In this document: positions 14,687-54,757 of the stretch, piece after piece
How the letters are laid out: every line of letters starts with the position of its first letter
Position numbering within the stretch: the stretch's first letter is position 1
From: an uncultured Acidimicrobiaceae bacterium
Lineage (GTDB): Bacteria > Actinomycetota > Acidimicrobiia > Acidimicrobiales > Palsa-688
Length of the DNA: 64,000 nt
NCBI GenBank assembly: GCA_963750465.1
Contig: CAVVRE010000007.1
Span: forward strand, 21,818 to 85,817
Reading direction: 5' to 3'
Position numbers and translations under genes: made by a program
Notes under the pieces: model-generated
What the model saw: only the letters and a program-made list of their open reading frames with translations
Told to the model about the DNA's origin: nothing
Databases searched by the model: none

Positions 14687-14756
14687 TGGCCCAGTGAGCC
14701 CGGCCCAGTCAGGCCGGGCCAGTCGGGCGGGCCCAGTCAGGCCGGGCCGGTGAGGG
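14687..14756. repeat. 14-bp GC-rich tandem repeat (CGGCCCAGTCAGGC-like, 5 degenerate copies) in the divergent region between the rsmC-like gene and def
   Basis: Units read at 14687, 14701, 14715, 14729 and 14743. Confidence 0.7.
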
Positions 14757-31384: not shown

Positions 31385-32617
31385 ATGTTCGGTTGGCATG
31401 TTCCGTCCCCTAATCAAGCAATGCTTATATCCGGCAGCAGGAACCGTGGAGACGCCCCGTTCCGCATCGTCGTGGGGCACGGTTCCTTTGCATTGCCAGT
31501 GCGGAACCAGATCCGGTTCTTGACCCTGTCCATGCAAGAGGCTGAGGTGGCAGAGCCCTGCGTAACCCAGCAGGGCATAACGTTACAGGTGAGAGCGGTT
31601 ATCGCGTTTAAAGTGGGCGACGACAACGATTCCATCGCCAATGCCGGCCGCCGGTTCCTCGACGACCAGGACGCAATGACCGAGCTGGTAGGCCGGATTT
31701 TTGCCGGTCACCTCCGATCGGTCGTCGGTTCCATGACGGTCGAGGACATTATCCGTGAACGCCAAAAACTTGCATCCCAAGTGCTCGACGCGTCGAAGCC
31801 GGAAATGGCGAAATTGGGCCTCGTCGTCGACGCTTTCCAGATCGAATCCATCGACGACGGACAGGCCGGGTATATAAAGGCCCTTTCACAGCCTCATATC
31901 GCGGCGGTAAACCAGGCCGCCCAAATTGCTCAGGCGCAAGCCGACCAGGCCGCCTCGAAAGTGCGTCAGGAGTCCGACCGCAACCAGGCTCAGTACCAGC
32001 AGGAAACGGCCGTGGCCAAGGCTCAGTACCAGGCCGAGATCGACCAGGCCCAACAGACCGCCGGCCAGTCCGGCCCGCTGGCCCAGGCCAGAGCGCTGCA
32101 GGAAGTCCTGTCCGAACAAGCCAAGGTGGCGCAGTCCCAGGGGGAGCTTCGGCGCCAGCAACTGGTGGCCGAGGTGGTGCGCCCGGCTGAAGCCGAAGCC
32201 GAAAAGGTCCGCACCCTGGCCCGCGCTCAGGCTGACGCCACGCGCTTGCAGGCCGAGGCCACAGCCACCGAGGGCGGCGTGGCGCTCGAGCGCATACTGG
32301 TCGAGAACATGCCCCAGATCATGGCCGCCGTCGCCGGCGAGCTGCGCCAGGCCAACGTCACGGTCCTCAACGGCGCCGAAGGGCTCGGCGAGCTGGTGGC
32401 CGGGCTGGCGTCGCAGGTGAACTCGATACTCGGCGTCGTTCGCAACGGCAACGGGAAACTGGACACGTCGTCGGCTCGCCCGGCGCCACTGCGAGCGGCC
32501 CAGGCACCATCGGACGCGCCAGCGCCGGCCGCGGCCCAGGCTCAAGCGGTGGCCGGTCAGTTCCAACAGCCGACCATTGCGGCCGCCCCTCCGGCCCGCG
32601 GACCGGCCCAGAAATGA
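31385..32617 (+). CDS. Flotillin-like SPFH/band-7 protein with coiled-coil and an Ala/Gln-rich C-terminus
   Basis: An SPFH core ('QGITLQVRAVIAFKV...') followed by long 'AQAQADQAASKVRQ...' coiled-coil repeats. Confidence 0.8.
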   Translation: MFGWHVPSPNQAMLISGSRNRGDAPFRIVVGHGSFALPVRNQIRFLTLSMQEAEVAEPCVTQQGITLQVRAVIAFKVGDDNDSIANAGRRFLDDQDAMTELVGRIFAGHLRSVVGSMTVEDIIRERQKLASQVLDASKPEMAKLGLVVDAFQIESIDDGQAGYIKALSQPHIAAVNQAAQIAQAQADQAASKVRQESDRNQAQYQQETAVAKAQYQAEIDQAQQTAGQSGPLAQARALQEVLSEQAKVAQSQGELRRQQLVAEVVRPAEAEAEKVRTLARAQADATRLQAEATATEGGVALERILVENMPQIMAAVAGELRQANVTVLNGAEGLGELVAGLASQVNSILGVVRNGNGKLDTSSARPAPLRAAQAPSDAPAPAAAQAQAVAGQFQQPTIAAAPPARGPAQK

Positions 32618-32649
32618 ACTGACCAGAAATGAACTGACCAGACTGGTGA

Positions 32650-33790
32650 TCAGCAGCGGTCTGGCTGATGCAGAAGCTGTTCGCGTAGGGCCTGGCGCCT
32701 CAGCTTGCCGATCGAAGTCTTGGGCAGGGCAGCGAGGATGACCACTTCCTTCGGCGCGGCAAAGGCGGCCAACTGCTCAGCGACCAGGCCTCGAAGGGCG
32801 GCCAGCTCCGGCGGTCCGGACGGATCCGAAGGGACGACGCAAGCCACGATGCGCTCTCCCCACTCGGGGTCCGGGCGGCTCGATACGGCCACCTCGGCCA
32901 CTCCGGGGTGCTGGCGGAGTATGTCTTCCACGGCCGCCGGCCAGACATTTTCCCCGCCCGTAATAATCAAATCGGAGAGCCGTCCGTATATGTGCAATCT
33001 GCCCGCCTCGTCGATGGCGCCGGCATCACCGGTCGCGAACCAGCCCTTGTCGTCGAGCGGGACGGCGCCGTCCCGGTACGCCCGCAACAACATCGGGCCC
33101 CGCAGCCGGACCTCGCCAGTGGGCGATATCGACATTTCTACGCCGTCAAGGGGTAAACCGTCGTAGACGACGCCGCTGCCTGTCTCGGTCATCCCGTACG
33201 TGGTCACCACGTTGGGGGGCAGGGCGGCGGGCGGCGCCGACCCGCCCAATACGACCTTGTAGAAAGCGCTCGCGCTCACACGGGCGAGCGCGGTCGGGAC
33301 AAGCGAGACGATGACGTCGGGGCCGGCGGCAGCACTGACGGGCGTGGCGTGGAAACCGTCCAGCACGGTGAGGGCCGTTCCCGTCAAGAGCGAACGCGTG
33401 ACCACGGAAAGCCCTCCGATGTGGCTGAGGGGCAGACATGCCAACCAGCGGTGCGCCTCGGGCCTCACTCCCAGCCGGGCCGACGTGGCCCGGGCCGAAG
33501 CGGCGACGGCGTCGTGGGTGAGGACCACCCCTTTGGCCGCTCCCGTACTGGCACTGGTCGCCACCACCAGCGCATCACCCTCCTCCGTCGGCGCCGCTCC
33601 CTCCTGGCGCTCGGTCCCCTCCGCAGTGACCACCCAGGCCGGCCGGAGCATCTCGAGCAGGCGCCGGCGAGCGGGCGGGGCGAGGCGCCCGTCGATGGGG
33701 GCGACGGCGTTCCCCGCGTCCCAGGCGCGCCTCGAGCGCGGCCACGAACTGAAGGCCGCCAGGCAGGTCGATCGCGACGAGGTCGGGCAT
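32650..33790 (-). CDS. menE: O-succinylbenzoate-CoA ligase (short actinobacterial form), with an apparent frameshift at ~33720
   Basis: Adenylate-forming motifs 'TSASTGAAKGVVLTH', 'YGMTETGSG' and 'GWFATGDAG'. The N-terminus 'MPDLVAIDLPGGLQFVAALEAR' is in the adjacent frame. The gene lies within the men cluster. Confidence 0.75.
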
Positions 33791-33852: not shown

Positions 33853-34731
33853 ATGGTCCAGGAGAGCCCGGCCCGGCATCCGTGGGTGCTCGGGGCGCGC
33901 CCGCGGACGCTGCCGGCCTCTGTCGTACCGGTCCTCGTGGGTACGGGCGCAGCGGCCGCCTACGGCGCCGCCATATGGTGGCGGGCGCTCCTGGCCGGGG
34001 TCGTCGCCCTCTCGCTCCAGATCGGCGTGAACTACGCCAACGATTACAGCGACGGCGTGAGGGGCACCGACGCCGCCCGCGTCGGCCCGGTCAGGCTCGT
34101 GGCGGGAGGTTTGGCATCCCCGGGGGCGGTCAAACGGGCCGCCCTGGCGGCGTTCGGCGTCGCCGGCGCGGCCGGCCTCGTCCTGGCCGCGGTGGCCGGG
34201 TGGTGGCTGGTGGCGCTGGGCGCGGTATGCGTCATCGCGGCCTGGTCCTATACCGGGGGACCACGCCCGTACGGCTACGTGGGCCTGGGTGAGGTCTCGG
34301 TGTTCGTGTTCTTCGGGCTGGTCGCGACCACCGGCACTGCCTACGTCCAGACCGACATGCTGACGTCGCTCGAGGTCCTGGCCGCCGTACCGGTCGGGCT
34401 CATAGCGGTGGCCTTGCTCGTGGTCAACAACCTGCGCGACATCCCCGGGGACACCGCTGCGGGCAAACGCACCCTGGCCGTACGCATCGGCCCGGCGGCG
34501 ACGCGGCGCCTGTACGAGGCGTGTGTGCTGCTCGCCGTCCTGCTCGTCGTGCCCATAGCGTTCATCCGCCCGTGGGCCCTTCTGGGCCTGGCCGCCTTCC
34601 CGGTCGCCATCGCTCCGGTGCGGGCTGTCGCCTCGGGGGCGGAGGGGCGGGCGCTGATCCCGGTCCTCGGGGCCACTGGGCGGGCGCAGCTCGTGCTGGG
34701 CGTACTACTCGCCATCGGCCTGGCCCTCTGA
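33853..34731 (+). CDS. menA: 1,4-dihydroxy-2-naphthoate polyprenyltransferase
   Basis: UbiA-family membrane protein 'NYANDYSDGVRGTD...VVNNLRDIPGD'. ATG at 33853. Confidence 0.85.
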   Translation: MVQESPARHPWVLGARPRTLPASVVPVLVGTGAAAAYGAAIWWRALLAGVVALSLQIGVNYANDYSDGVRGTDAARVGPVRLVAGGLASPGAVKRAALAAFGVAGAAGLVLAAVAGWWLVALGAVCVIAAWSYTGGPRPYGYVGLGEVSVFVFFGLVATTGTAYVQTDMLTSLEVLAAVPVGLIAVALLVVNNLRDIPGDTAAGKRTLAVRIGPAATRRLYEACVLLAVLLVVPIAFIRPWALLGLAAFPVAIAPVRAVASGAEGRALIPVLGATGRAQLVLGVLLAIGLAL

Positions 34732-35523
34732 CCCGCCGGTCGGAGAGCTCTCGTAGAAGTTCGCTATCGCCGCCGCCACCTCGCCGGGCCGTTCGAGATG
34801 ACATGCGTGGCCGGCGGCGGCCACGACTTCCGTCGATGCCAATGGGCCGATAAGGTCCGCCATCCGTTCGGCATGGGCTCGGTAGGCATGATCGAGCTCG
34901 CCCACGATCAGCAGTACCGGTATGCCCGCCTCACCCAACTGGCCCAGCCTCGGCCACAACGGCTCCTGAGCCCCGGCGCCCGCCAAACGCAAGCTGGACG
35001 CGAGACCGGCGGGTGGGTTGTTGACCCGGTCCTCGAGCCCGGCATCCCCGGCCGCCAGCGTGGCGAACAGCGGTTGGGCCAGCCACCAGGTCAGGAACCG
35101 TTCCGTACCCTCGTTCTCGATACGCGTGGCCAGTGCCTCGTCGGCGGTGCGGCGGGCGGCCCTCCTGGCCGGGTCGTCGATGCCCGCCGACGTGCTGATG
35201 AGGACCAGCCTTTCCACTTGTCCAGGGTGGGTGAGGGCAAGGTGCAGCGCCGTGCGGCCACCCATCGAATAGCCCACCCAGGTCGCCCGGTTGGGGACGG
35301 CCTGGGCCAAGAGGTCGGCCGTCTGCCAGAGGTCGGCCCGCACGCCGGACGAGCCGCCGTGACCGGGAGCATCGGGGAGGACCACCGGAAAGCGGCCCCG
35401 CAACGCCTCGAGCACGGGAGCCCACGATGCGCTCGTCTGAGTGAAACCGTGCAGGAGCACGAGCGGAGTTCGGCCTCGGCCGGTAACGTCGCCAATGGCG
35501 CGGAACGACAGCCGTCCCGCCAT
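34705..35523 (-). CDS. menH: Alpha/beta hydrolase, probable SHCHC synthase
   Basis: 'PLVLLHGFTQTSASW...GYSMGGRTALHLALTHP'. The start is taken at 'MAGRLSF'. The longer listed ORF reads into the upstream tandem repeat. Confidence 0.7.
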   Translation of the reverse strand: MAGRLSFRAIGDVTGRGRTPLVLLHGFTQTSASWAPVLEALRGRFPVVLPDAPGHGGSSGVRADLWQTADLLAQAVPNRATWVGYSMGGRTALHLALTHPGQVERLVLISTSAGIDDPARRAARRTADEALATRIENEGTERFLTWWLAQPLFATLAAGDAGLEDRVNNPPAGLASSLRLAGAGAQEPLWPRLGQLGEAGIPVLLIVGELDHAYRAHAERMADLIGPLASTEVVAAAGHACHLERPGEVAAAIANFYESSPTGGSEGQADGE

Positions 35524-35525
35524 TG

Positions 35526-35605
35526 GCGCCCCCGTCATTCGCACCCCCGTCAGTGGCACCCCCGTCAGTGGCACCCCCGTCAGTGGCACCCCCGTCAGTG
35601 GCACT
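35526..35605. repeat. 15-bp tandem repeat GCACCCCCGTCAGTG (4 perfect copies plus 1 degenerate and 1 partial) in the divergent menH-menD intergenic region
   Basis: Perfect copies at 35541, 35556, 35571 and 35586. Confidence 0.85.
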
Positions 35606-35690
35606 CGGTACTCTTCCAGGTCGTGACCCTCTACCCACGGGCGATCCACTGCTGCCGGACGATCCTCAGCCACGAAGCGATTCTGGCGCA

Positions 35691-37633
35691 ATGACAAGCC
35701 GTCCGGCACCAGAAGACGTTCAGGCCGCCTTTGCCACCGTGCTGGTTGACGAATGGTTGCGGGCCGGCGTAAGCGATGCGGTGGCCTGCCCGGGCTCGAG
35801 GTCGACCCCCCTGCTCATCGCCCTGGCCGAGGCGGCGGAGCAAGGCGCGCTACGGCTCCATGTACTGGCCGACGAGCGTTCGGCCGGGTTCTTCGCTCTC
35901 GGCCTGGCCCTGACGACGGGGGTGCCGGCACCGGTCGTAACGACGAGCGGCACCGCCGCCTCCGAACTGCACCCGGCGGTCATCGAAGCCCACCACGCCG
36001 GGGTGCCCATGGTGGCCGTAACGGCCGACCGCCCTCCAGAGCTCCACGGCTTTGGCGCCCCCCAGACCGTCGACCAGGAAGGCCTCTTCGGTAGGGCTGT
36101 CCGGTGGGAGGTGCACCCTGGGCCCCCGAGCTGGCCGCCGCCTGGTCCTGGCGGTCTTTGGCGTCCCGGTCGTTCGCCGAGGCCTGCGGCGGCGCCCACC
36201 GTCCCGGGCCGGTCCACCTCAACCTGGCCTTCAGGGAGCCCTTGCTCGGTTCGTCCGCCGCCGTCCTCCAGGGAACGCCCGACGGAGCCGCCGATGCGGA
36301 CATCGAAGCGGCGTTGGGCCCAGCAGCAGGCCCCGACCGGGCCAGGGCCCTTCGGCGGCTCCGGCTGGGCCGGGCGGACGGCGGACCGTGGCATAGCCGG
36401 GGATGGACCGGGCCGGGGCTGTCGCCACCGCCAATGGGTGCAGTGGAGCTGTTGGCCGCGGCCGGAGAACGGGGCCTGATAATCGCCGGCGCCGGCGCCG
36501 GCGATCCCGAGGCGGTCTGGTCGCTCTCGAAAGCCACCGGTTGGCCCGTCTTGGCTACGCCGCAGAGCGGTTGCCGCCTACCTGGGGCCATCGCGTCCGC
36601 CGACGCTCTTGTGCGCACCGAGGTGGTGCGCCGGTGGCGGCCCGACCTGGTCGTGCGGCTGGGCGCCCCGTGGGCTTCCCGGGTGCTCAACGAATGGCTA
36701 GCCGGTCTCAGCTGCACCCAGGTCCTGGTCGACCCGGGTGGGACGTGGACGGCGCCCGATCGTCCACCGGGGGACGTGATCATAGCCAGCCCCGAGCTGG
36801 TATGTCAGGAGGCGGCGGCCAGAGTGAAGGCCGGCTCATCTGACCACTGGGGAGGCTCCTGGGCGCGCCAATGGAGCCTGGCCGAGGGCACGGCTCAGGC
36901 CGCCATCGACGCCGCACTGACGGCCGAAAACGGTTTGACGGAACCGGCCATCGCCCGCACCCTGCTGGAAAAGTCCCCCGTTGGAGCGACCATCTTCGCC
37001 TCGTCATCCATGCCTGTGCGGGAGGTGGAGTGGTGGAGCCAGCCCCGAGCGGGGGTCAGGGTCCTCGCCAACCGGGGCGCCAACGGCATAGACGGCGTGT
37101 TGTCGACCGCCCTCGGTGTGGCCGCCTCGCTCGTATCGGTGCCCCCACGCCCACTTCGCCCGGGGCGCGCCGGTGCGGAGGCCTCTGGCGCACCGGCCTC
37201 GATGGTTGCCGCCACCCCCGGGCCCGGCCCGGCCCCGGTCATCGCCCTCCTCGGCGACCTCGCTTTCCTCTACGACGCCACCGCCTTGCTCGCCGGCGCC
37301 AAGGCCGGGGTCGACCTCGACGTGATCGTCGTAGACAACGACGGCGGTGGTATCTTCAGCTTCCTCCCCCAGGCTTCGGGCCAGCCGGCGGCGCGGTTCG
37401 AACGGTTGTGGGGCACGGCGCACGGCGCCGACCTCGTGGCGGTGGCCCGTGGCTATGGCGCGGCGGCCGAGGAGCTAGCCGACCTGAAGAGCCTGACCAC
37501 CTGCATGGCCGGCGGAGGTGAGGGCAACGGTTTGCGCGTGTTCGTAGCCAAGACGGACCGCGCCGCCAATGTCGCGGTTCACCAGCGCCTGAACAGGGCG
37601 GTGGAGAAGGCGGTGCAGAGCGCCGTCGGGTAG
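35691..37633 (+). CDS. menD: SEPHCHC synthase (ThDP-dependent), with an apparent frameshift at ~36110 in a C-run
   Basis: 'VACPGSRSTPLLIAL...' ThDP enzyme N-terminus and 'GDLAFLYD...NDGGGIF' ThDP-binding motif. Frames 35523..36479 and 36104..37633. Confidence 0.85.
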
Positions 37634-37677: not shown

Positions 37678-38979
37678 TTACGGCCGGACGAGGGCGGCCA
37701 GGAGGGCTTGGAGCTTCAGCTGGGTCTCGCCCAGTTCGGCGTCGGGGTCCGAACCAACGACGATGCCGTTGCCGGCGTACATGACGGCCCGGTTCCCCGA
37801 GACGTGAGCGCTGCGCAGCCCGAGCACCCATTCGCCATCCCCGGCGCTGTCGACCCACCCGAGCGGCCCGGCGTAGCAACCACGGTCGAACCCCTCGTTC
37901 TGGCGTTGCCACTGGATGGCTGCGTCGACCGGTAGGCCGCCCACGGCGGGTGTCGGCTGGAGGAGGGCAGCGAGCTCGAGGCTGGTCGGCAGCCCCGGGC
38001 CCTGGCTCTGGTCCTTGCCATTGCTGTGTGAGCCTCCGTCCGCGGCCCAACTGCCGGCGCCTTCATGAAGCGTTCCTTTGATCGACGTCCCGAGGTGGGA
38101 GACGTTGCGGAGGGCCACGACCGACGGCGCCTCCGGAACGTGCAGCGAGGCGAGCGGGCTGAGCTTGGCCGCGATCTGGTCGACCACCAGCTGGTGCTCG
38201 CGGCGGTCCTTGCTCGACGACATGAGCGCCGCCACCAGGGCGTCGTCAGTGGCGGGATCGCCGCTCCGGGCCACCGTGCCGGCCAAGGGGTGACTTTCGA
38301 TATCTGTCCCGTTCCTGCGCAACAGGGTCTCAGGGCTGGCGCCGAGGAAGCCTTCGACATGGAACACCGCGCACGACGGGTACAGGTGCGCGAGGCGGGA
38401 CAAGGTCTCGGGCAGGGCGAACGGACGGTTGGCCACCACCTCGACCTGCCGGGCCAGGACGACCTTGGACATAGCGCCGCTGTCCATCTCTTTCACGGCC
38501 CGGGCCACGAGGTTCTTCCAGTCCTCGTGGGGCACGGTGGCGCCCAGTTCGAAGCGATCGGGCAGAACCGTCGAGGCCGGGCTGCGGCCCAGTTCGGCCA
38601 GTTCGTCGTCGATGGCCTCCCGGTAGGTGGAGGGCGAGGCCCCCGGCCCGGCCGGGACGGTCAGGGTCACCCAGGCACTGTCGGGCCGAAGCGTTATCAC
38701 CAAGCGGGGGACGCTGAGGTGGCCGGGCGCGGAGGGGTCGTACGGCAAGGCGCCGATCGCCACCGGCCCGCCGCCGGGCTGGGCCGGCTTGTGCTCGGTG
38801 TTGATGGCGGAAAGGGCTCGTTGGACGAGCGAGGTGTGCTCGGGCGCCGCCCAGCCCGCCAGCAACGGGAGGCGTAAAGCCTCCCCGGACCCTAGGATCG
38901 TGAGCTCGCTCTTGGCCCACAGGTACCGGTCGGGGTGCCCGCCCGCTTTGACCAGGTCGGGGACCGAAGCGGGATCCAC
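37678..38979 (-). CDS. menF: Isochorismate synthase
   Basis: Chorismate-binding family motifs '...SPETLLRRNG...HPLAGTV...GPLGWVDSAGDGEW'. Lies within the men cluster. Confidence 0.85.
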   Translation of the reverse strand: MDPASVPDLVKAGGHPDRYLWAKSELTILGSGEALRLPLLAGWAAPEHTSLVQRALSAINTEHKPAQPGGGPVAIGALPYDPSAPGHLSVPRLVITLRPDSAWVTLTVPAGPGASPSTYREAIDDELAELGRSPASTVLPDRFELGATVPHEDWKNLVARAVKEMDSGAMSKVVLARQVEVVANRPFALPETLSRLAHLYPSCAVFHVEGFLGASPETLLRRNGTDIESHPLAGTVARSGDPATDDALVAALMSSSKDRREHQLVVDQIAAKLSPLASLHVPEAPSVVALRNVSHLGTSIKGTLHEGAGSWAADGGSHSNGKDQSQGPGLPTSLELAALLQPTPAVGGLPVDAAIQWQRQNEGFDRGCYAGPLGWVDSAGDGEWVLGLRSAHVSGNRAVMYAGNGIVVGSDPDAELGETQLKLQALLAALVRP

Positions 38980-39060
38980 CGAGAAGGTGAACGCCCTGAG
39001 TTGGCGGGCGGCCCCGAGGGTGTCGGAGACATGGGCGTGGGCGGCACGTCGGGACGCGCC

Positions 39061-39157
39061 GGGCTGCAGGGTCTCGGGCTGCAGGGTCTCGGGCTGCAGG
39101 ATCTCGGGCTGCAGGATCTCGGGCTGCAGGATCTCGGGCTGCAGGATCTCGGGCTGC
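39061..39157. repeat. 15-bp tandem repeat GGGCTGCAGG(G/A)TCTC (6 copies plus partial) between menG/ubiE (stop 39197) and the menF start (38979)
   Basis: Two G-variant then four A-variant copies read directly. Confidence 0.85.
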
Positions 39158-39196
39158 TCGCCTGTGGGTGCCGGGGCGGGGCCCGGCCGGAGACCC

Positions 39197-39934
39197 TCAC
39201 GAACCGCTCAGCGGCTGGCGGGTGGCCACGTACAGCTGGCTGATGCCGCCCGACAGCAGTTCGTGTTCGACGGCGCCGAAACCGGCCCGTTCGAGCAGCT
39301 TGACCACCTCGGGCGGGGGCGGGAGATAAGCAAAGCTACGGGGCAGGTAGCGGTAGGCGTCGGCGTCCGACAACACCGAACCGACCAAGGGGACGGCGTA
39401 GGTCGACCAGTAGCGGTGCCCCAGACGCAGCAGGCCGGCCTCCGGCTCGGCCAGGTCGAGCAACGATATACGGCCTCCAGCACGGACGACCCGGGCCAAT
39501 TCGGCGAACAGGTCCCCGAGGTCGACGACGTTGCGCAGCGCGAACCCGCTCACGGCGCCGTCGAAAGCGCTGGCCCGGAACGGAGCCGCCAGCGCGTCAG
39601 CCAGGACCAGGGGGGCGGTGGTGTGGGCGTGCGCGAGCATGCCGGGAGAGAGGTCCACGCCCACCGGACGATGGCGGCGGGCGGAAAGCTCCCGGCAGAG
39701 GTCGGCCGTCCCGCACGCGACGTCGAGCACTACCGAGCCGGCGGGGAGGTCCAGGGCGTCGACGCAGCGGTGGCGCCAACCGCGGTCCATGCCAAAAGAC
39801 ATGAGGCTATTGACCAGCTCGTAGCGCCCGGCGATGGCGTCGAACATGTGCCGGACAGCCCGGACCTTTTCGTCGCCTTCGGGCAGGCCCTCCCGGCCGT
39901 CAGTCGTAGTAGCGGAAGAGGACATCTGCGACAC
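39197..39934 (-). CDS. menG: Demethylmenaquinone methyltransferase (UbiE/MenG family)
   Basis: 'VLDVACGTADL' SAM motif and an 'RNVVDL' UbiE signature. Confidence 0.85.
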   Translation of the reverse strand: MSQMSSSATTTDGREGLPEGDEKVRAVRHMFDAIAGRYELVNSLMSFGMDRGWRHRCVDALDLPAGSVVLDVACGTADLCRELSARRHRPVGVDLSPGMLAHAHTTAPLVLADALAAPFRASAFDGAVSGFALRNVVDLGDLFAELARVVRAGGRISLLDLAEPEAGLLRLGHRYWSTYAVPLVGSVLSDADAYRYLPRSFAYLPPPPEVVKLLERAGFGAVEHELLSGGISQLYVATRQPLSGS

Positions 39935-40355
39935 AAGAAGGTTTGTCTGAACCCTCGACCTCGAACGTCACCTTCACCGTTACCTGCCTACCGCCCTCGA
40001 ACTCGTCCACGGACTCGAGGCTGGCGCCGCAGCGCAGCTTCGACCCTACAGGCACGGGCGCCGGGAACCGGACCCGGTTGAGCCCGTAGTTCACGGTGAA
40101 CCGGGGCCCCTCGACGGCCAGGATCTCGCCCAGAAGGGCGGGCACCAGGGAGAGCGTGAGGTACCCATGGGCGATCGGGGTACCGAAGGGCCCGGCTTTG
40201 GCCCGTTCGGGGTCGACGTGGATCCACTGGTGGTCGTCCGTGGCGTCTGCGAAAAGGTTGACCTGGTCCTGAGTTACGGTGTGCCAGCGGCTGTACCCGA
40301 GGTGCGACCCGACTTTGGCCTTCAAGTCGTCCACGGTCAGCGTGTTGGTGCTCAT
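39900..40355 (-). CDS. MaoC-like (R)-specific enoyl-CoA hydratase / hot-dog fold dehydratase
   Basis: '...FADATDDHQWIHVDPERAKAGPFGTPIAHGYLTLSL' hot-dog signature. Confidence 0.8.
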   Translation of the reverse strand: MSTNTLTVDDLKAKVGSHLGYSRWHTVTQDQVNLFADATDDHQWIHVDPERAKAGPFGTPIAHGYLTLSLVPALLGEILAVEGPRFTVNYGLNRVRFPAPVPVGSKLRCGASLESVDEFEGGRQVTVKVTFEVEGSDKPSCVADVLFRYYD

Positions 40356-44856: not shown

Positions 44857-45306
44857 ATGACCAGCTCGGTCCGGCCAGCCGCGGAGCAACGGGGGCGTGC
44901 GTCGGTTGGCGGGGCTGCGGTTGCTCGGGCTGCCGTTGGCCGGGCTGCCCTCGGCCGGGCTGGTGAGGACCTGGCCGCCGGCTGGTACGAGGCTCACGGC
45001 TACGAGGTCCTGGCCCGCAACTGGCGCTGCCGGGAGGGCGAGCTGGACATCGTGGCCCGCCGCGACCGGCTCGTCGTTTTCTGCGAGGTGAAGGCGCGCA
45101 CCTCAGATGCCTTCGGCCTGCCGGGCGAGGCGGTGGGCCCGCTGAAGCAGGCCAGAGTTCGGCGCCTGGCCGCCCTCTGGTATGCCGATCAGGCTTCGGC
45201 CGGCGGTGATGGCGGGCTTGGCCGGGGGCGGCGGGGTGGACCCGCCCGCTTCGACGTGGCCTCCGTGCTGGCCGGCGCAGTCGAGGTGGTAGAGGGGGCT
45301 TTTTAG
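44857..45306 (+). CDS. yraN: YraN-family (UPF0102) putative endonuclease. The start is uncertain
   Basis: 'GRAGEDLAAGWYEAHGYEVLARNWRCREGELDIVARRDRLVVFCEVKAR'. Confidence 0.75.
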   Translation: MTSSVRPAAEQRGRASVGGAAVARAAVGRAALGRAGEDLAAGWYEAHGYEVLARNWRCREGELDIVARRDRLVVFCEVKARTSDAFGLPGEAVGPLKQARVRRLAALWYADQASAGGDGGLGRGRRGGPARFDVASVLAGAVEVVEGAF

Positions 45307-51152: not shown

Positions 51153-51456
51153 CGATCGACTCAGGGGCTACGATTTACCACTGTGGGTTCCCTCGTTAGC
51201 GCTGAGAGTGGCCGGAGGGTGGCGGAAAGCGCCGAGCATCCAGCCGGGAGGGCGAGGGGAGCCACCTTGCGCGAGATCAACGAGACCGGACCTCAGCAGA
51301 GCCCCAGGAAGGCCGCCTCTCGGAAGACTGGGCCGCTGACGGAAGAGCCTCGGACGGCAGGGCCGGCTAGGCCGGCTCCGAGCGGGGTAGTCGAGCCGGG
51401 GGCAGTAGTCGAGCCGGGCGCAGTAGACGCCGCCTGGCAGCTGCCCGATTGGGTCA

Positions 51457-53374: not shown

Positions 53375-54757
53375 ATGGCCGTCGTAACAATGCGGCAGCT
53401 TTTAGAGGCGGGAGTCCATTTCGGGCACCAGACAAGGCGCTGGAACCCGAAGATGAAGCGCTTTATCTTTGGCGAGCGCAATGGCATTTACATAATTGAC
53501 CTGAACCAGACGCTGCAACGCGTCGATGTTGCCTATTCGTTTGTGAGGGACCTGGTCGCCAACGGCGGCAGCGTGCTTTTCATTGGCACGAAGAAGCAAT
53601 CTCAAGACCCCATAGCCCGTTCGGCGCAGCTATGCGGGATGCCGTTTGTCAACGAGCGTTGGCTAGGCGGGATGCTCACGAACTTCTCGACCATCGCGTT
53701 GCGCGTGAAGAAGATGCAAGAGTACGAGCGAATGCGGTCGGCCGGCGATTTTGAAGCAATGCCGAAAAAAGAGGCGCTGATACTCACCCGGGAGCTGGAG
53801 AAGCTCGAGCGCAACCTCGGCGGCATACGCGACATGAACCGCCTGCCCGAGGCGGTCTTCATTATCGACATCAAGAAAGAGCACATCGCCGTATCGGAAG
53901 CCAACAAGATGGGCATCCCGATCGTGGCCGTCGTCGACACCAACTGCGACCCCGATCTGGTCCAGTACCCGATCCCCGGCAACGACGATGCCATCCGCAG
54001 CGGCACCTTGATGTGCCGGGTGATCCAGGAGGGGGTCGAGGAGGGGCAGTTCGTGGCCTCCAGGCGGGGTACCGGTTCCGGCCCGGCTGCGGGTGGTCCG
54101 GCGTGGCCCGCCTTCGAGCCGCCACCGGCCGTGACGCAGCCGGCCCGCAGTTTCGCGCCCCCGCCGGCGAGGCCGGCTCCCACCGGGCCAGCCCAATCGG
54201 GCGCGGCCCAGTCCGGCGCGGCCCAATCCGGCGCGGCGCAAACCGGCGCGGCCCAAACCGAGGAACCTCAGACCGAGGCCACCCAGTACGCCTCCGCGCC
54301 AGCCGTCAGTGGACCGCCGCCCGAACCGGTAGCTGCTACGCCGCGCCCTGAGGCTGGGCGAGTGGAGGTGTTCGAAGCCCCCGCAGGCGGAGCGGAGCCG
54401 GAAACAGCTGCGGCAGCGCCAGCGCCGGCGGCAACAGCTCCGGCGGCAACAGCTCCGGCCGCAACAGCTCCGGCAACGTCAGCGCCGGCCCCAGCAGCTC
54501 CGGTAGCGCCAGCGCCGGCCGCCCCAGCGGAACCTGCCGTCCAGCCTGCGCCGGCCACGCCGAGAGCGCCATCAGCGACGGAAGCGGCCGACGCCGCATA
54601 CGCGACACCAGGGGCGGAAGACCAACCAACCGCGACCACCGCCGCCGACGAGGCAACACCGGCCGGCACCGGCCGTGACCCCTCCGCGACCACCGCAGCC
54701 ACCGTGGGCCCAGAGGGCGCAGCCGAAGTCGCGGCAACGCCAGAAAACTACAGTTAG
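53375..54757 (+). CDS. rpsB: 30S ribosomal protein S2 with a ~200-aa Ala/Pro/Gln-rich low-complexity C-terminal extension encoded by in-frame 15-bp tandem repeats
   Basis: '[27 protein letters not shown]' after GGAGAGGAG RBS. The tail contains '[23 protein letters not shown]' and '[16 protein letters not shown]'. Confidence 0.9.

Follow-up and report, generated by a model that had tools for sequence, protein, structure and literature searches.

A 15-bp tandem repeat lies at the junction between the divergently oriented genes menH and menD of an uncultured Acidimicrobiaceae bacterium, and its position raises the question of whether it is regulatory DNA or part of a protein. We examined this junction in the 64,000-nucleotide stretch of DNA analysed here (the window) and in related genomes. 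The earlier note on this DNA placed the repeat in a divergent promoter region, outside any credible coding sequence, and proposed that it might act as a slippage-prone regulatory switch or as a set of protein-binding iterons. From the comparisons described below, we consider it likely that the array is instead an in-frame coding minisatellite, carried in a translated, low-complexity N-terminal extension of MenH.

Gene context

Profile matches were found for menE (32650-33651, minus strand), menA (plus strand) and menF (37678-38979, minus strand). These, together with menD, flank a minus-strand gene whose main part (34705-35511) encodes a conserved N-terminus (LSFRA...) and an alpha/beta-hydrolase domain with Abhydrolase matches in Pfam. 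The match of this protein to TIGR03695 (menH_SHCHC) has an E-value of 6e-56 and a score of 189.6 bits, which is under the curated cut-off of 208.55. The gene is probably menH, identified at a level short of equivalog. Only Abhydrolase-type families were found in Pfam for the 334-aa version of the ORF, with no match to the pentapeptide-repeat family PF00805, and no identical protein was found for P0122 or for the window MenH, in either its 272-aa or its 334-aa version. The divergent menH/menD arrangement is conserved across the relatives that were fetched, and the source names of the homologues are those of Acidimicrobiales or Acidimicrobiaceae MAGs. Neither the genes called in the closely related L001 nor those scanned in the window include a candidate regulator adjoining the array.

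The menD gene starts on the plus strand at the ATG at 35691-35693, and its TIGR00173 match begins at residue 15. The placement of the MenH hydrolase domain on the minus strand and of MenD from this ATG on the plus strand agrees with the earlier note. The MenD N-terminus (MT..DVQAAF) is kept in relatives, and an intact 647-aa MenD is called from the equivalent ATG in L083, L166 and L168. This bears on the idea that the array belongs to MenD, as plus-strand APPSV repeats in an N-terminal extension (ORF 35523-36479). The menD frame is open through the array. We reject this reading because the menD ATG and the N-terminus that follows it are conserved in all relatives and the antisense spacer frames contain 17 to 39 stops across relatives. 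In addition, many relatives have a closed or unrelated menD frame upstream of this ATG, and the MenD profile match begins at residue 15 counted from the ATG at 35691. The chance that the repeats are part of MenD is negligible.

In the window, menD is divided between two plus-strand frames (35691-36479 and 36104-37633). The window is one C short at about 36122 relative to L166 and L168, both of which have an intact 647-aa MenD. The split is likely a single-base assembly error, or else a genuine frameshift.

The array and its variation between strains

The array comprises six units at 35512-35601, four of them perfect, and a 3-nt partial unit at 35602-35604. Tandem Repeats Finder reports it at 35516-35604 with a period of 15, 5.9 copies, 93% matches and a score of 143, in agreement with the four perfect and the degenerate copies that had been described between the two genes. 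On the forward strand, the four perfect copies of GCACCCCCGTCAGTG occupy 35541-35600. They are followed to the left by a copy with three mismatches at 35526-35540 and a further degenerate copy at about 35511-35525. In the menH codon register (minus strand), the perfect units are at 35601-35587, 35586-35572, 35571-35557 and 35556-35542 and all read CCACTGACGGGGGTG, the fifth unit (35541-35527) reads CGAATGACGGGGGCG and the sixth (35526-35512) reads CCAATGGCGGGACGG. The whole (35512-35604, minus strand) is thus four times CCA CTG ACG GGG GTG, which encodes PLTGV, and then RMTGA and PMAGR. The left edge of the array is about 15 nt beyond the boundary given in the earlier note, so the ATG at 35523 that the note took as the menH start is inside the array.

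Elsewhere in the window, the 15-mer has no good second copy, only matches with two or three mismatches, so we rejected the idea that it is a dispersed repeat. The total of 10 matches, five of them within the array, compares with a shuffle expectation of 5.6. The array itself is real and not a chance product. It was found in the independent assemblies L001, L085, L166, L167, L168 and L169. Some grounds for suspecting an assembly or sequencing artefact do exist, because single-base indels occur in this assembly group (e.g., the menD frameshift at about 36122) and conserved menH coding sequence is interrupted by indels in L167 and L169. Such single-base errors do not create 15-bp units, however, and at least seven independent assemblies (ENA, NCBI, JGI) contain the array, differing from one another by whole units and by point substitutions. 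An artefact can be set aside as exceedingly improbable.

Copy number differs between assemblies of the same species. There are two perfect units in L168, three in L001 and four in the window. L001 is 99.4% identical to the window over 24700-45649 (about 21 kb), and the sole multi-base indel in this interval is one 15-bp unit that is missing in L001. The L168 array is 30 bp shorter than that of the window. Within the same 90% protein cluster, MenH proteins of 304, 309 and 314 aa carry two, three and four PLTGV, respectively, and L169 has six units with differing point changes. The array is a true VNTR, as had been suspected from its slippage-prone appearance. All strain-level changes in array length are multiples of 15 bp, with the single exception of L166, which is considered below. 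A scan of metagenomes returned no further strains of the window's species (no relative in it was closer than 68%). The array may be used as a strain marker for uncultured Acidimicrobiales MAGs.

More distant relatives indicate where the repeat came from. L085, which is 89% identical, has an orthologous array of six diverged units with the same total length as in the window. It is in frame (PVTGG PVTGG PATGL LATGL PATGA PMPGG) and its spacer of 213 nt is that of the window. The sister species represented by L082-L084 (83% identical) has a single copy of the segment, P-S-L-G-R, which indicates that five codons immediately preceding the conserved LSFRA N-terminus were amplified to give the array.

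At the inner edge of the array is a perfect 11-nt inverted repeat, CGCCAATGGCG / CGCCATTGGCG (35490-35500 / 35518-35528), with 17 nt between its arms, one of which holds the ATG at 35523. It is only partly conserved in L085. The inverted repeat could form a hairpin that promotes slippage, or could mask the ATG at 35523. No covariance-model match was found in Rfam at E<=1 for 35200-36000, and the predicted fold of the extension RNA is of ordinary stability (z = -0.77).

An open reading frame through the array

In the shortest arrangements found among Acidimicrobiales relatives, the menD and menH start codons are almost back to back. They are joined by a conserved core that reads, in menH sense, CAT (the menD ATG)-N5-CA(A/G)(G/A/T)AT-N6-(G/A)TG. 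To define the menH start we searched upstream of menH for CAT-N5-CA[AG][GAT]AT-N6-NNN, with the last triplet left free. The search yielded 41 unique contexts, in which this triplet is GTG in 30, ATG in seven and CTG in three, the remaining match being spurious. In the window, the core is CAT-TGCGC-CAGAAT-CGCTTC-GTG, and its GTG (35671-35673, minus strand), with 17 nt between it and the menD ATG, corresponds to the GTG or ATG found at this fixed place in 37 of the 41 unique relatives.

The distance from this codon to the MenH domain varies greatly, and the frame is kept. The 37 unique GTG/ATG contexts include 34 that share the frame of the MenH domain, with 22 distinct spacer lengths that range from 30 to 285 nt and are multiples of 3 in every case. 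The menH frame contains no stop in 1533 codons from 35 unique in-frame spacers, compared with 43 and 18 stops in the remaining sense frames and 17, 39 and 24 in the antisense frames. In L012, a TAG directly precedes the core GTG, so that translation from any point further upstream is impossible there. The three out-of-frame contexts (L038, L048 and L064) are all from MFD MAGs. Deep Nanopore sequencing was the basis of the MFD genome catalogue (PMC12313526), and homopolymer indels are a recognised weakness of Nanopore data (PMC9262707). L048 has an additional frameshift inside the conserved domain, and a single nucleotide separates L038 from seven in-frame JGI proteins of its cluster.

In the window, the spacer of 213 nt is in frame and reads VAEDRPAAVDRPWVEGHDLEEYRV-(PLTGV)4-RMTGA-PMAGR-LSFRA. 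The coding sequence from the GTG at 35673 is 34705-35673 (minus strand) and specifies a 322-aa MenH, with a predicted N-terminus of (M/V)AEDRPAAVDRPWVEGHDLEEYR and a predicted tryptic peptide of VPLTGVPLTGVPLTGVPLTGVR. As in a coding VNTR, the unit is a multiple of 3, the ORF is kept open by selection, and the start is 213 nt upstream of the domain anchor. In view of the conserved start, the contexts in frame and the absence of stops, the earlier statement that the array is outside any credible coding sequence probably does not hold. The longer ORF, which had been dismissed as an N-terminal read-through, appears at the sequence level to be a conserved N-terminal extension of MenH in relatives.

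Thus, we infer that the extension is actually made as protein. MenH would be translated from the conserved GTG at 35673, which abuts the divergent menD ATG at 35691, and its first 71 codons would form a low-complexity extension ahead of the alpha/beta-hydrolase domain. Within this extension, the six 15-bp units would encode (PLTGV)4-RMTGA-PMAGR. The units probably arose by tandem duplication of a five-codon segment, equivalent to the single P-S-L-G-R of the sister species, and their number would shift via replication slippage or unequal recombination. We propose that translation of the stretch eliminates all changes other than those of whole units, which preserve the frame. The PLTGV stretch is absent in the sister species, and the simplest reading is therefore that it is a tolerated flexible spacer. 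It is probably without a specific function beyond this, and nothing suggests a new biochemical or regulatory mechanism.

The practical consequence is for annotation. Existing gene calls in near-identical genomes disagree on where MenH begins, with at least five codons chosen, and the apparent 168-bp divergent promoter between menH and menD is probably just 17 bp. An intergenic-looking repeat can be coding where genes are leaderless, and multiple-of-3 periods combined with the absence of stops across relatives can reveal it.

The divergent start region

The start codons are accompanied by similarly placed hexamers. A -10-like CAGAAT (35680-35685, minus strand) is 6 nt upstream of the menH GTG, within the conserved CA(A/G)(G/A/T)AT-N6-start geometry, and a -10-like GATTCT (35679-35684, plus strand) is 6 nt upstream of the menD ATG, again in a geometry that is conserved in relatives. 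The two hexamers overlap on opposite strands. Both start 12 nt before the start codon and have A at position 2 and T at position 6, and they begin with C (menH) or G (menD) in place of T at position 1. No Shine-Dalgarno (SD) sequence was found in the window before the distal menH GTG or before the menD ATG.

Leaderless actinobacterial genes typically have TANNNT about 12 nt before the start and no -35 element, and GTG is as usable as ATG for their initiation (PMC3160421, PMC3898074). The TANNNT signal was described by Zheng et al. 2011 (PMC3160421), and Cortes et al. 2013 (PMC3898074) describe juxtaposed divergent promoters, such as those of prpD and Rv1129c, as a common arrangement in M. tuberculosis. 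The menH/menD junction resembles such divergent leaderless promoters in the 17 nt between its starts, the absence of an SD sequence, the hexamer 12 nt before each start and the use of GTG and ATG. It differs from mapped actinobacterial examples in that the hexamers begin with C or G and overlap each other on opposite strands. A promoter and terminator scan based on an E. coli-type consensus found no sites. Judged from this geometry, menH and menD may both be leaderless with overlapping -10-like hexamers, a proposition to which we give about even chances. If it is correct, an mRNA would be read from its first codon, so that promoter-adjacent duplications must be multiples of 3, and the back-to-back layout would be a natural example of 5'-end translation constraining promoter-proximal duplications.

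In the window as a whole, TANNNT occurs 11 times at the four offsets 12-15 nt before candidate starts, compared with 16 times at 21 other offsets. The motif is 12 or 13 nt before the candidate starts of long ORFs at 40355 (minus), 18005 (plus), 50413 (minus), 30996 (minus) and 45682 (minus), which are candidate leaderless genes. At 40355, TAACCT-N6-ATG is ahead of a MaoC-menG-menF gene string. Also present is a 13-nt inverted repeat (35649-35661 / 35700-35712; 92% complementary) that is centred on the overlapping hexamers. Due to this repeat, MenH and MenD both begin ..(D/S)RPA(A/P). Neither L083 nor L085 conserves this inverted repeat.

Repeats at the same junction in other lineages

Other lineages have their own in-frame arrays at the same place, with periods of 15, 18, 21, 24 or 36 bp. 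These include 15-bp arrays that encode QPGQA (L005), KPGQL (P0014), TGPQT (L020) and TETGD (L037), a further 15-bp array in L035, a 36-bp array in L032, and a 24-bp plus an 18-bp array in L018. The QPGQA and KPGQL arrays vary between strains in steps of 5 aa. All well-supported periods in relatives are multiples of 3; the weak exceptions are a 14-bp period with 2.1 copies and a 20-bp period with 3.4 copies at 74% identity.

These observations also bear on the suggestion that the array consists of protein-binding iterons or is an operator for a regulator of the men genes. Like plasmid or regulatory iterons, the array is formed by direct repeats (15-22 bp in iterons) in an apparently intergenic place between divergent genes, and two inverted repeats are nearby. 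Unlike iterons, it has no replication, Rep or origin context, and the stretch is constrained as an ORF. The unit is not conserved in relatives: it is missing in the sister species (L083), the L085 units have diverged from each other, and unrelated units are found at the same place in other lineages. The window holds no other copy, and periods that are multiples of 3 are not needed by binding sites. We regard a binding function as very improbable.

Returning to the coding interpretation, some of the lineage-specific arrays involve the start region itself. An 18-bp unit, CAAGATCACCGTGTGGCC, consists of the -10-like hexamer and GTG core, and its copies are mutually in frame. Arrays of two to about seven such copies were found upstream of menH in, among others, L010, L015, L018, L019, L048 and L089, and at further loci in L091, L092, L095, L101, L102, L107, L108, L110 and L121. 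In L015 and L019, the first 18-bp copy is out of frame and carries CTG in place of GTG. Tandem, in-frame repetition of a hexamer-plus-start module in several relatives is unlike known leaderless promoters.

The window appears to retain a trace of the same process. Four degenerate 18-bp units that derive from the promoter-plus-start core can be recognized at 35614-35685 (minus strand), homologous to the 18-bp arrays of relatives. Self-identity in this interval is 52% at a lag of 18, compared with about 25% at other lags, and 37 of 72 positions match the 18-bp unit of relatives, a value reached in none of 20000 shuffles. The first unit of the series is the live module and the fourth encodes the conserved EGHD(L/Q)xxY block. 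On the menD side, 21-bp arrays (PSPQTGQ-type) were noted in the MenD N-terminus of L007, L013 and L016, after a conserved DLAPMT start, which indicates that the duplication hotspot spans both sides of the core.

It is conceivable, and in our view rather doubtful, that the junction is a compact bidirectional leaderless promoter whose promoter-start module and downstream coding DNA are a recurrent hotspot of tandem duplication. If so, the 18-bp module arrays would give several in-frame copies of promoter and start that tune the level of MenH or the length of its N-terminus, and the window would hold four decayed 18-bp modules plus a younger 15-bp VNTR.

Evidence bearing on a possible start nearer the hydrolase domain

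The principal alternative to a translated array is that it is an untranslated VNTR in the 5'-leader or promoter region, with MenH starting at the ATG at 35523 or 35538 and the GGGGG of the preceding unit serving as the SD sequence. Array length might then modulate menH or menD expression. The two proximal in-frame ATGs (35538-35536 and 35523-35521, minus strand) are each 5 nt downstream of a GGGGG run, and gene callers pick a proximal ATG in some strains (P0121, P0002). These codons may be internal or alternative SD-led starts.

Base composition also fails to favour coding. For the extension, GC3 is about 0.60 in the window and 0.74 across relatives, where GC1 is 0.76. Such unraised GC3 is atypical for coding sequence, yet it is expected from the codons of low-complexity stretches rich in Gly, Ala, Pro and Asp. 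A GC3 frame plot around the array singled out no frame. Furthermore, the EGHDQAQY block is conserved at synonymous sites too, so that some of this conservation may concern the DNA itself.

The most direct support for a proximal start comes from L166 (ena:ERZ26871208 contig_123413_np1212), whose MenH is more than 90% identical to that of the window. Its 242-nt spacer puts the distal GTG out of the MenH frame and leaves only the proximal ATG in it. Most of the PLTGV array is swapped for QPGQA-type 15-bp units (L166:1501-1710), for a net gain of 29 nt. These units share a 24-nt junction, GACGACCTGGCCCAGCCCGGACAG, with the L005 clade, which is 63% identical. The pattern suggests that the L166 array is a mosaic, formed by recombination between lineages. 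Its 3' junction (...CCCGGGGCGCCAATGG) is within a run of four G in L166, where every other strain has five, and it is plausible that the loss of frame is a one-base G-run error at the recombination junction.

Other evidence weighs against the leader interpretation. An untranslated stretch would not be expected to preserve frame and lack stops from the distal start over 22 spacer lengths, or, L166 excepted, to change between strains by multiples of 15 bp. An ATG at the proximal place is confined to the window's species group; the sister species has a TTG nearby, and most of the wider clade lacks a start codon there (L002-L005, P0004, P0011, P0014 and P0016). The perfect 11-bp stem would also bury the proximal AUG (35523). 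Finally, the 83%-identical sister species lacks the array, which thus cannot be a conserved regulatory element. Taken together, these points make an untranslated leader an unlikely explanation, and we continue to favour translation through the array.

Comparison with known repeat systems

The array probably belongs to a known class, the in-frame coding minisatellites. Bacterial examples are the 18-bp SD-repeat and the 24-bp spa repeats of Staphylococcus and the MIRU-VNTR loci inside ORFs of Mycobacterium. Shared with these are a unit that is a multiple of 3, copy-number differences between close strains, a low-complexity peptide product and an origin by slippage or recombination. The menH array differs from surface-protein VNTRs in its location, which is the N-terminal tail of a cytoplasmic enzyme of the menaquinone pathway, and from known coding VNTRs in that a start codon adjoining a divergent gene precedes it by about 70 nt.

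The contingency loci of Haemophilus and Neisseria have phase-variable simple-sequence repeats in promoters or 5' coding regions. The menH array is likewise slippage-prone and near the starts of divergent genes. In contrast to contingency loci, a 15-bp unit cannot shift the frame, so that on/off behaviour is neither possible nor seen, and the array is outside any -35/-10 spacing, about 70 nt downstream of the putative -10 element and start. The frame-switching form of the regulatory role that was first proposed is excluded by the unit length, given also that the observed length changes are multiples of 15 bp in every strain other than L166.

The five-residue period of the array is reminiscent of pentapeptide-repeat proteins (PF00805), for which the consensus is A(D/N)LXX. 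Unlike these proteins, the menH array has six units only, its consensus is P-x-T-G-x, and it has no match to the profile.

Other repeats in the window

A second 15-bp array, CAGCCCGAGATCCTG x 6.5, is present at 39060-39157, between the menG stop (39197-39199) and the listed menF start (GTG 38979). The menF frame (minus strand) is open up to 39207 and reads the array as (QPEIL)n, and a conserved MenF N-terminus (AARQLRAFT) is encoded upstream of 38979. In L171 and L172, from the sister species, the menF start overlaps the menG stop as ATGA, and a single QTETL occupies the place of the array. The corresponding GTGA of the window, at 39200, is shifted by one base relative to the menF frame. Three sister assemblies differ in homopolymer length in this menF stretch, so the offset is probably a sequencing indel. 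The array follows the same pattern as that of menH, in a MenF N-terminal extension, which suggests that this genome tolerates pentapeptide expansions in the terminal tails of proteins. A 'Cys-every-fifth RiPP' match (E 2.6e-4, below the cut-off) in ORF 38627-40081 overlaps this array on the other strand and was rejected as spurious.

Additional repeats are close to, or within, the ends of predicted genes. Units of 14/28 bp at 14688-14754 are about 60 nt upstream of a peptide deformylase domain, and 18-bp units (2.2 copies) at 51387-51432 are near the likely start of a XerC/D-type integrase; both of these arrays are outside the stretch that was compared with L001. Four 15-bp units at 44903-44962 directly precede a UPF0102 domain and have the same copy number in L001. 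Ribosomal protein S2, the domain of which covers residues 26-241 of a 477-aa ORF, has 15/30/45-bp arrays (54191-54260 and 54403-54522) in its long C-terminal tail. An AT-richer 15-bp repeat, CCAGAAATGAACTGA x 2.3 (32608-32642), runs across the stop of the Band_7 gene (ORF 31385-32617) and covers most of the 32-bp gap that separates it from the convergent menE (stop end at 32650).
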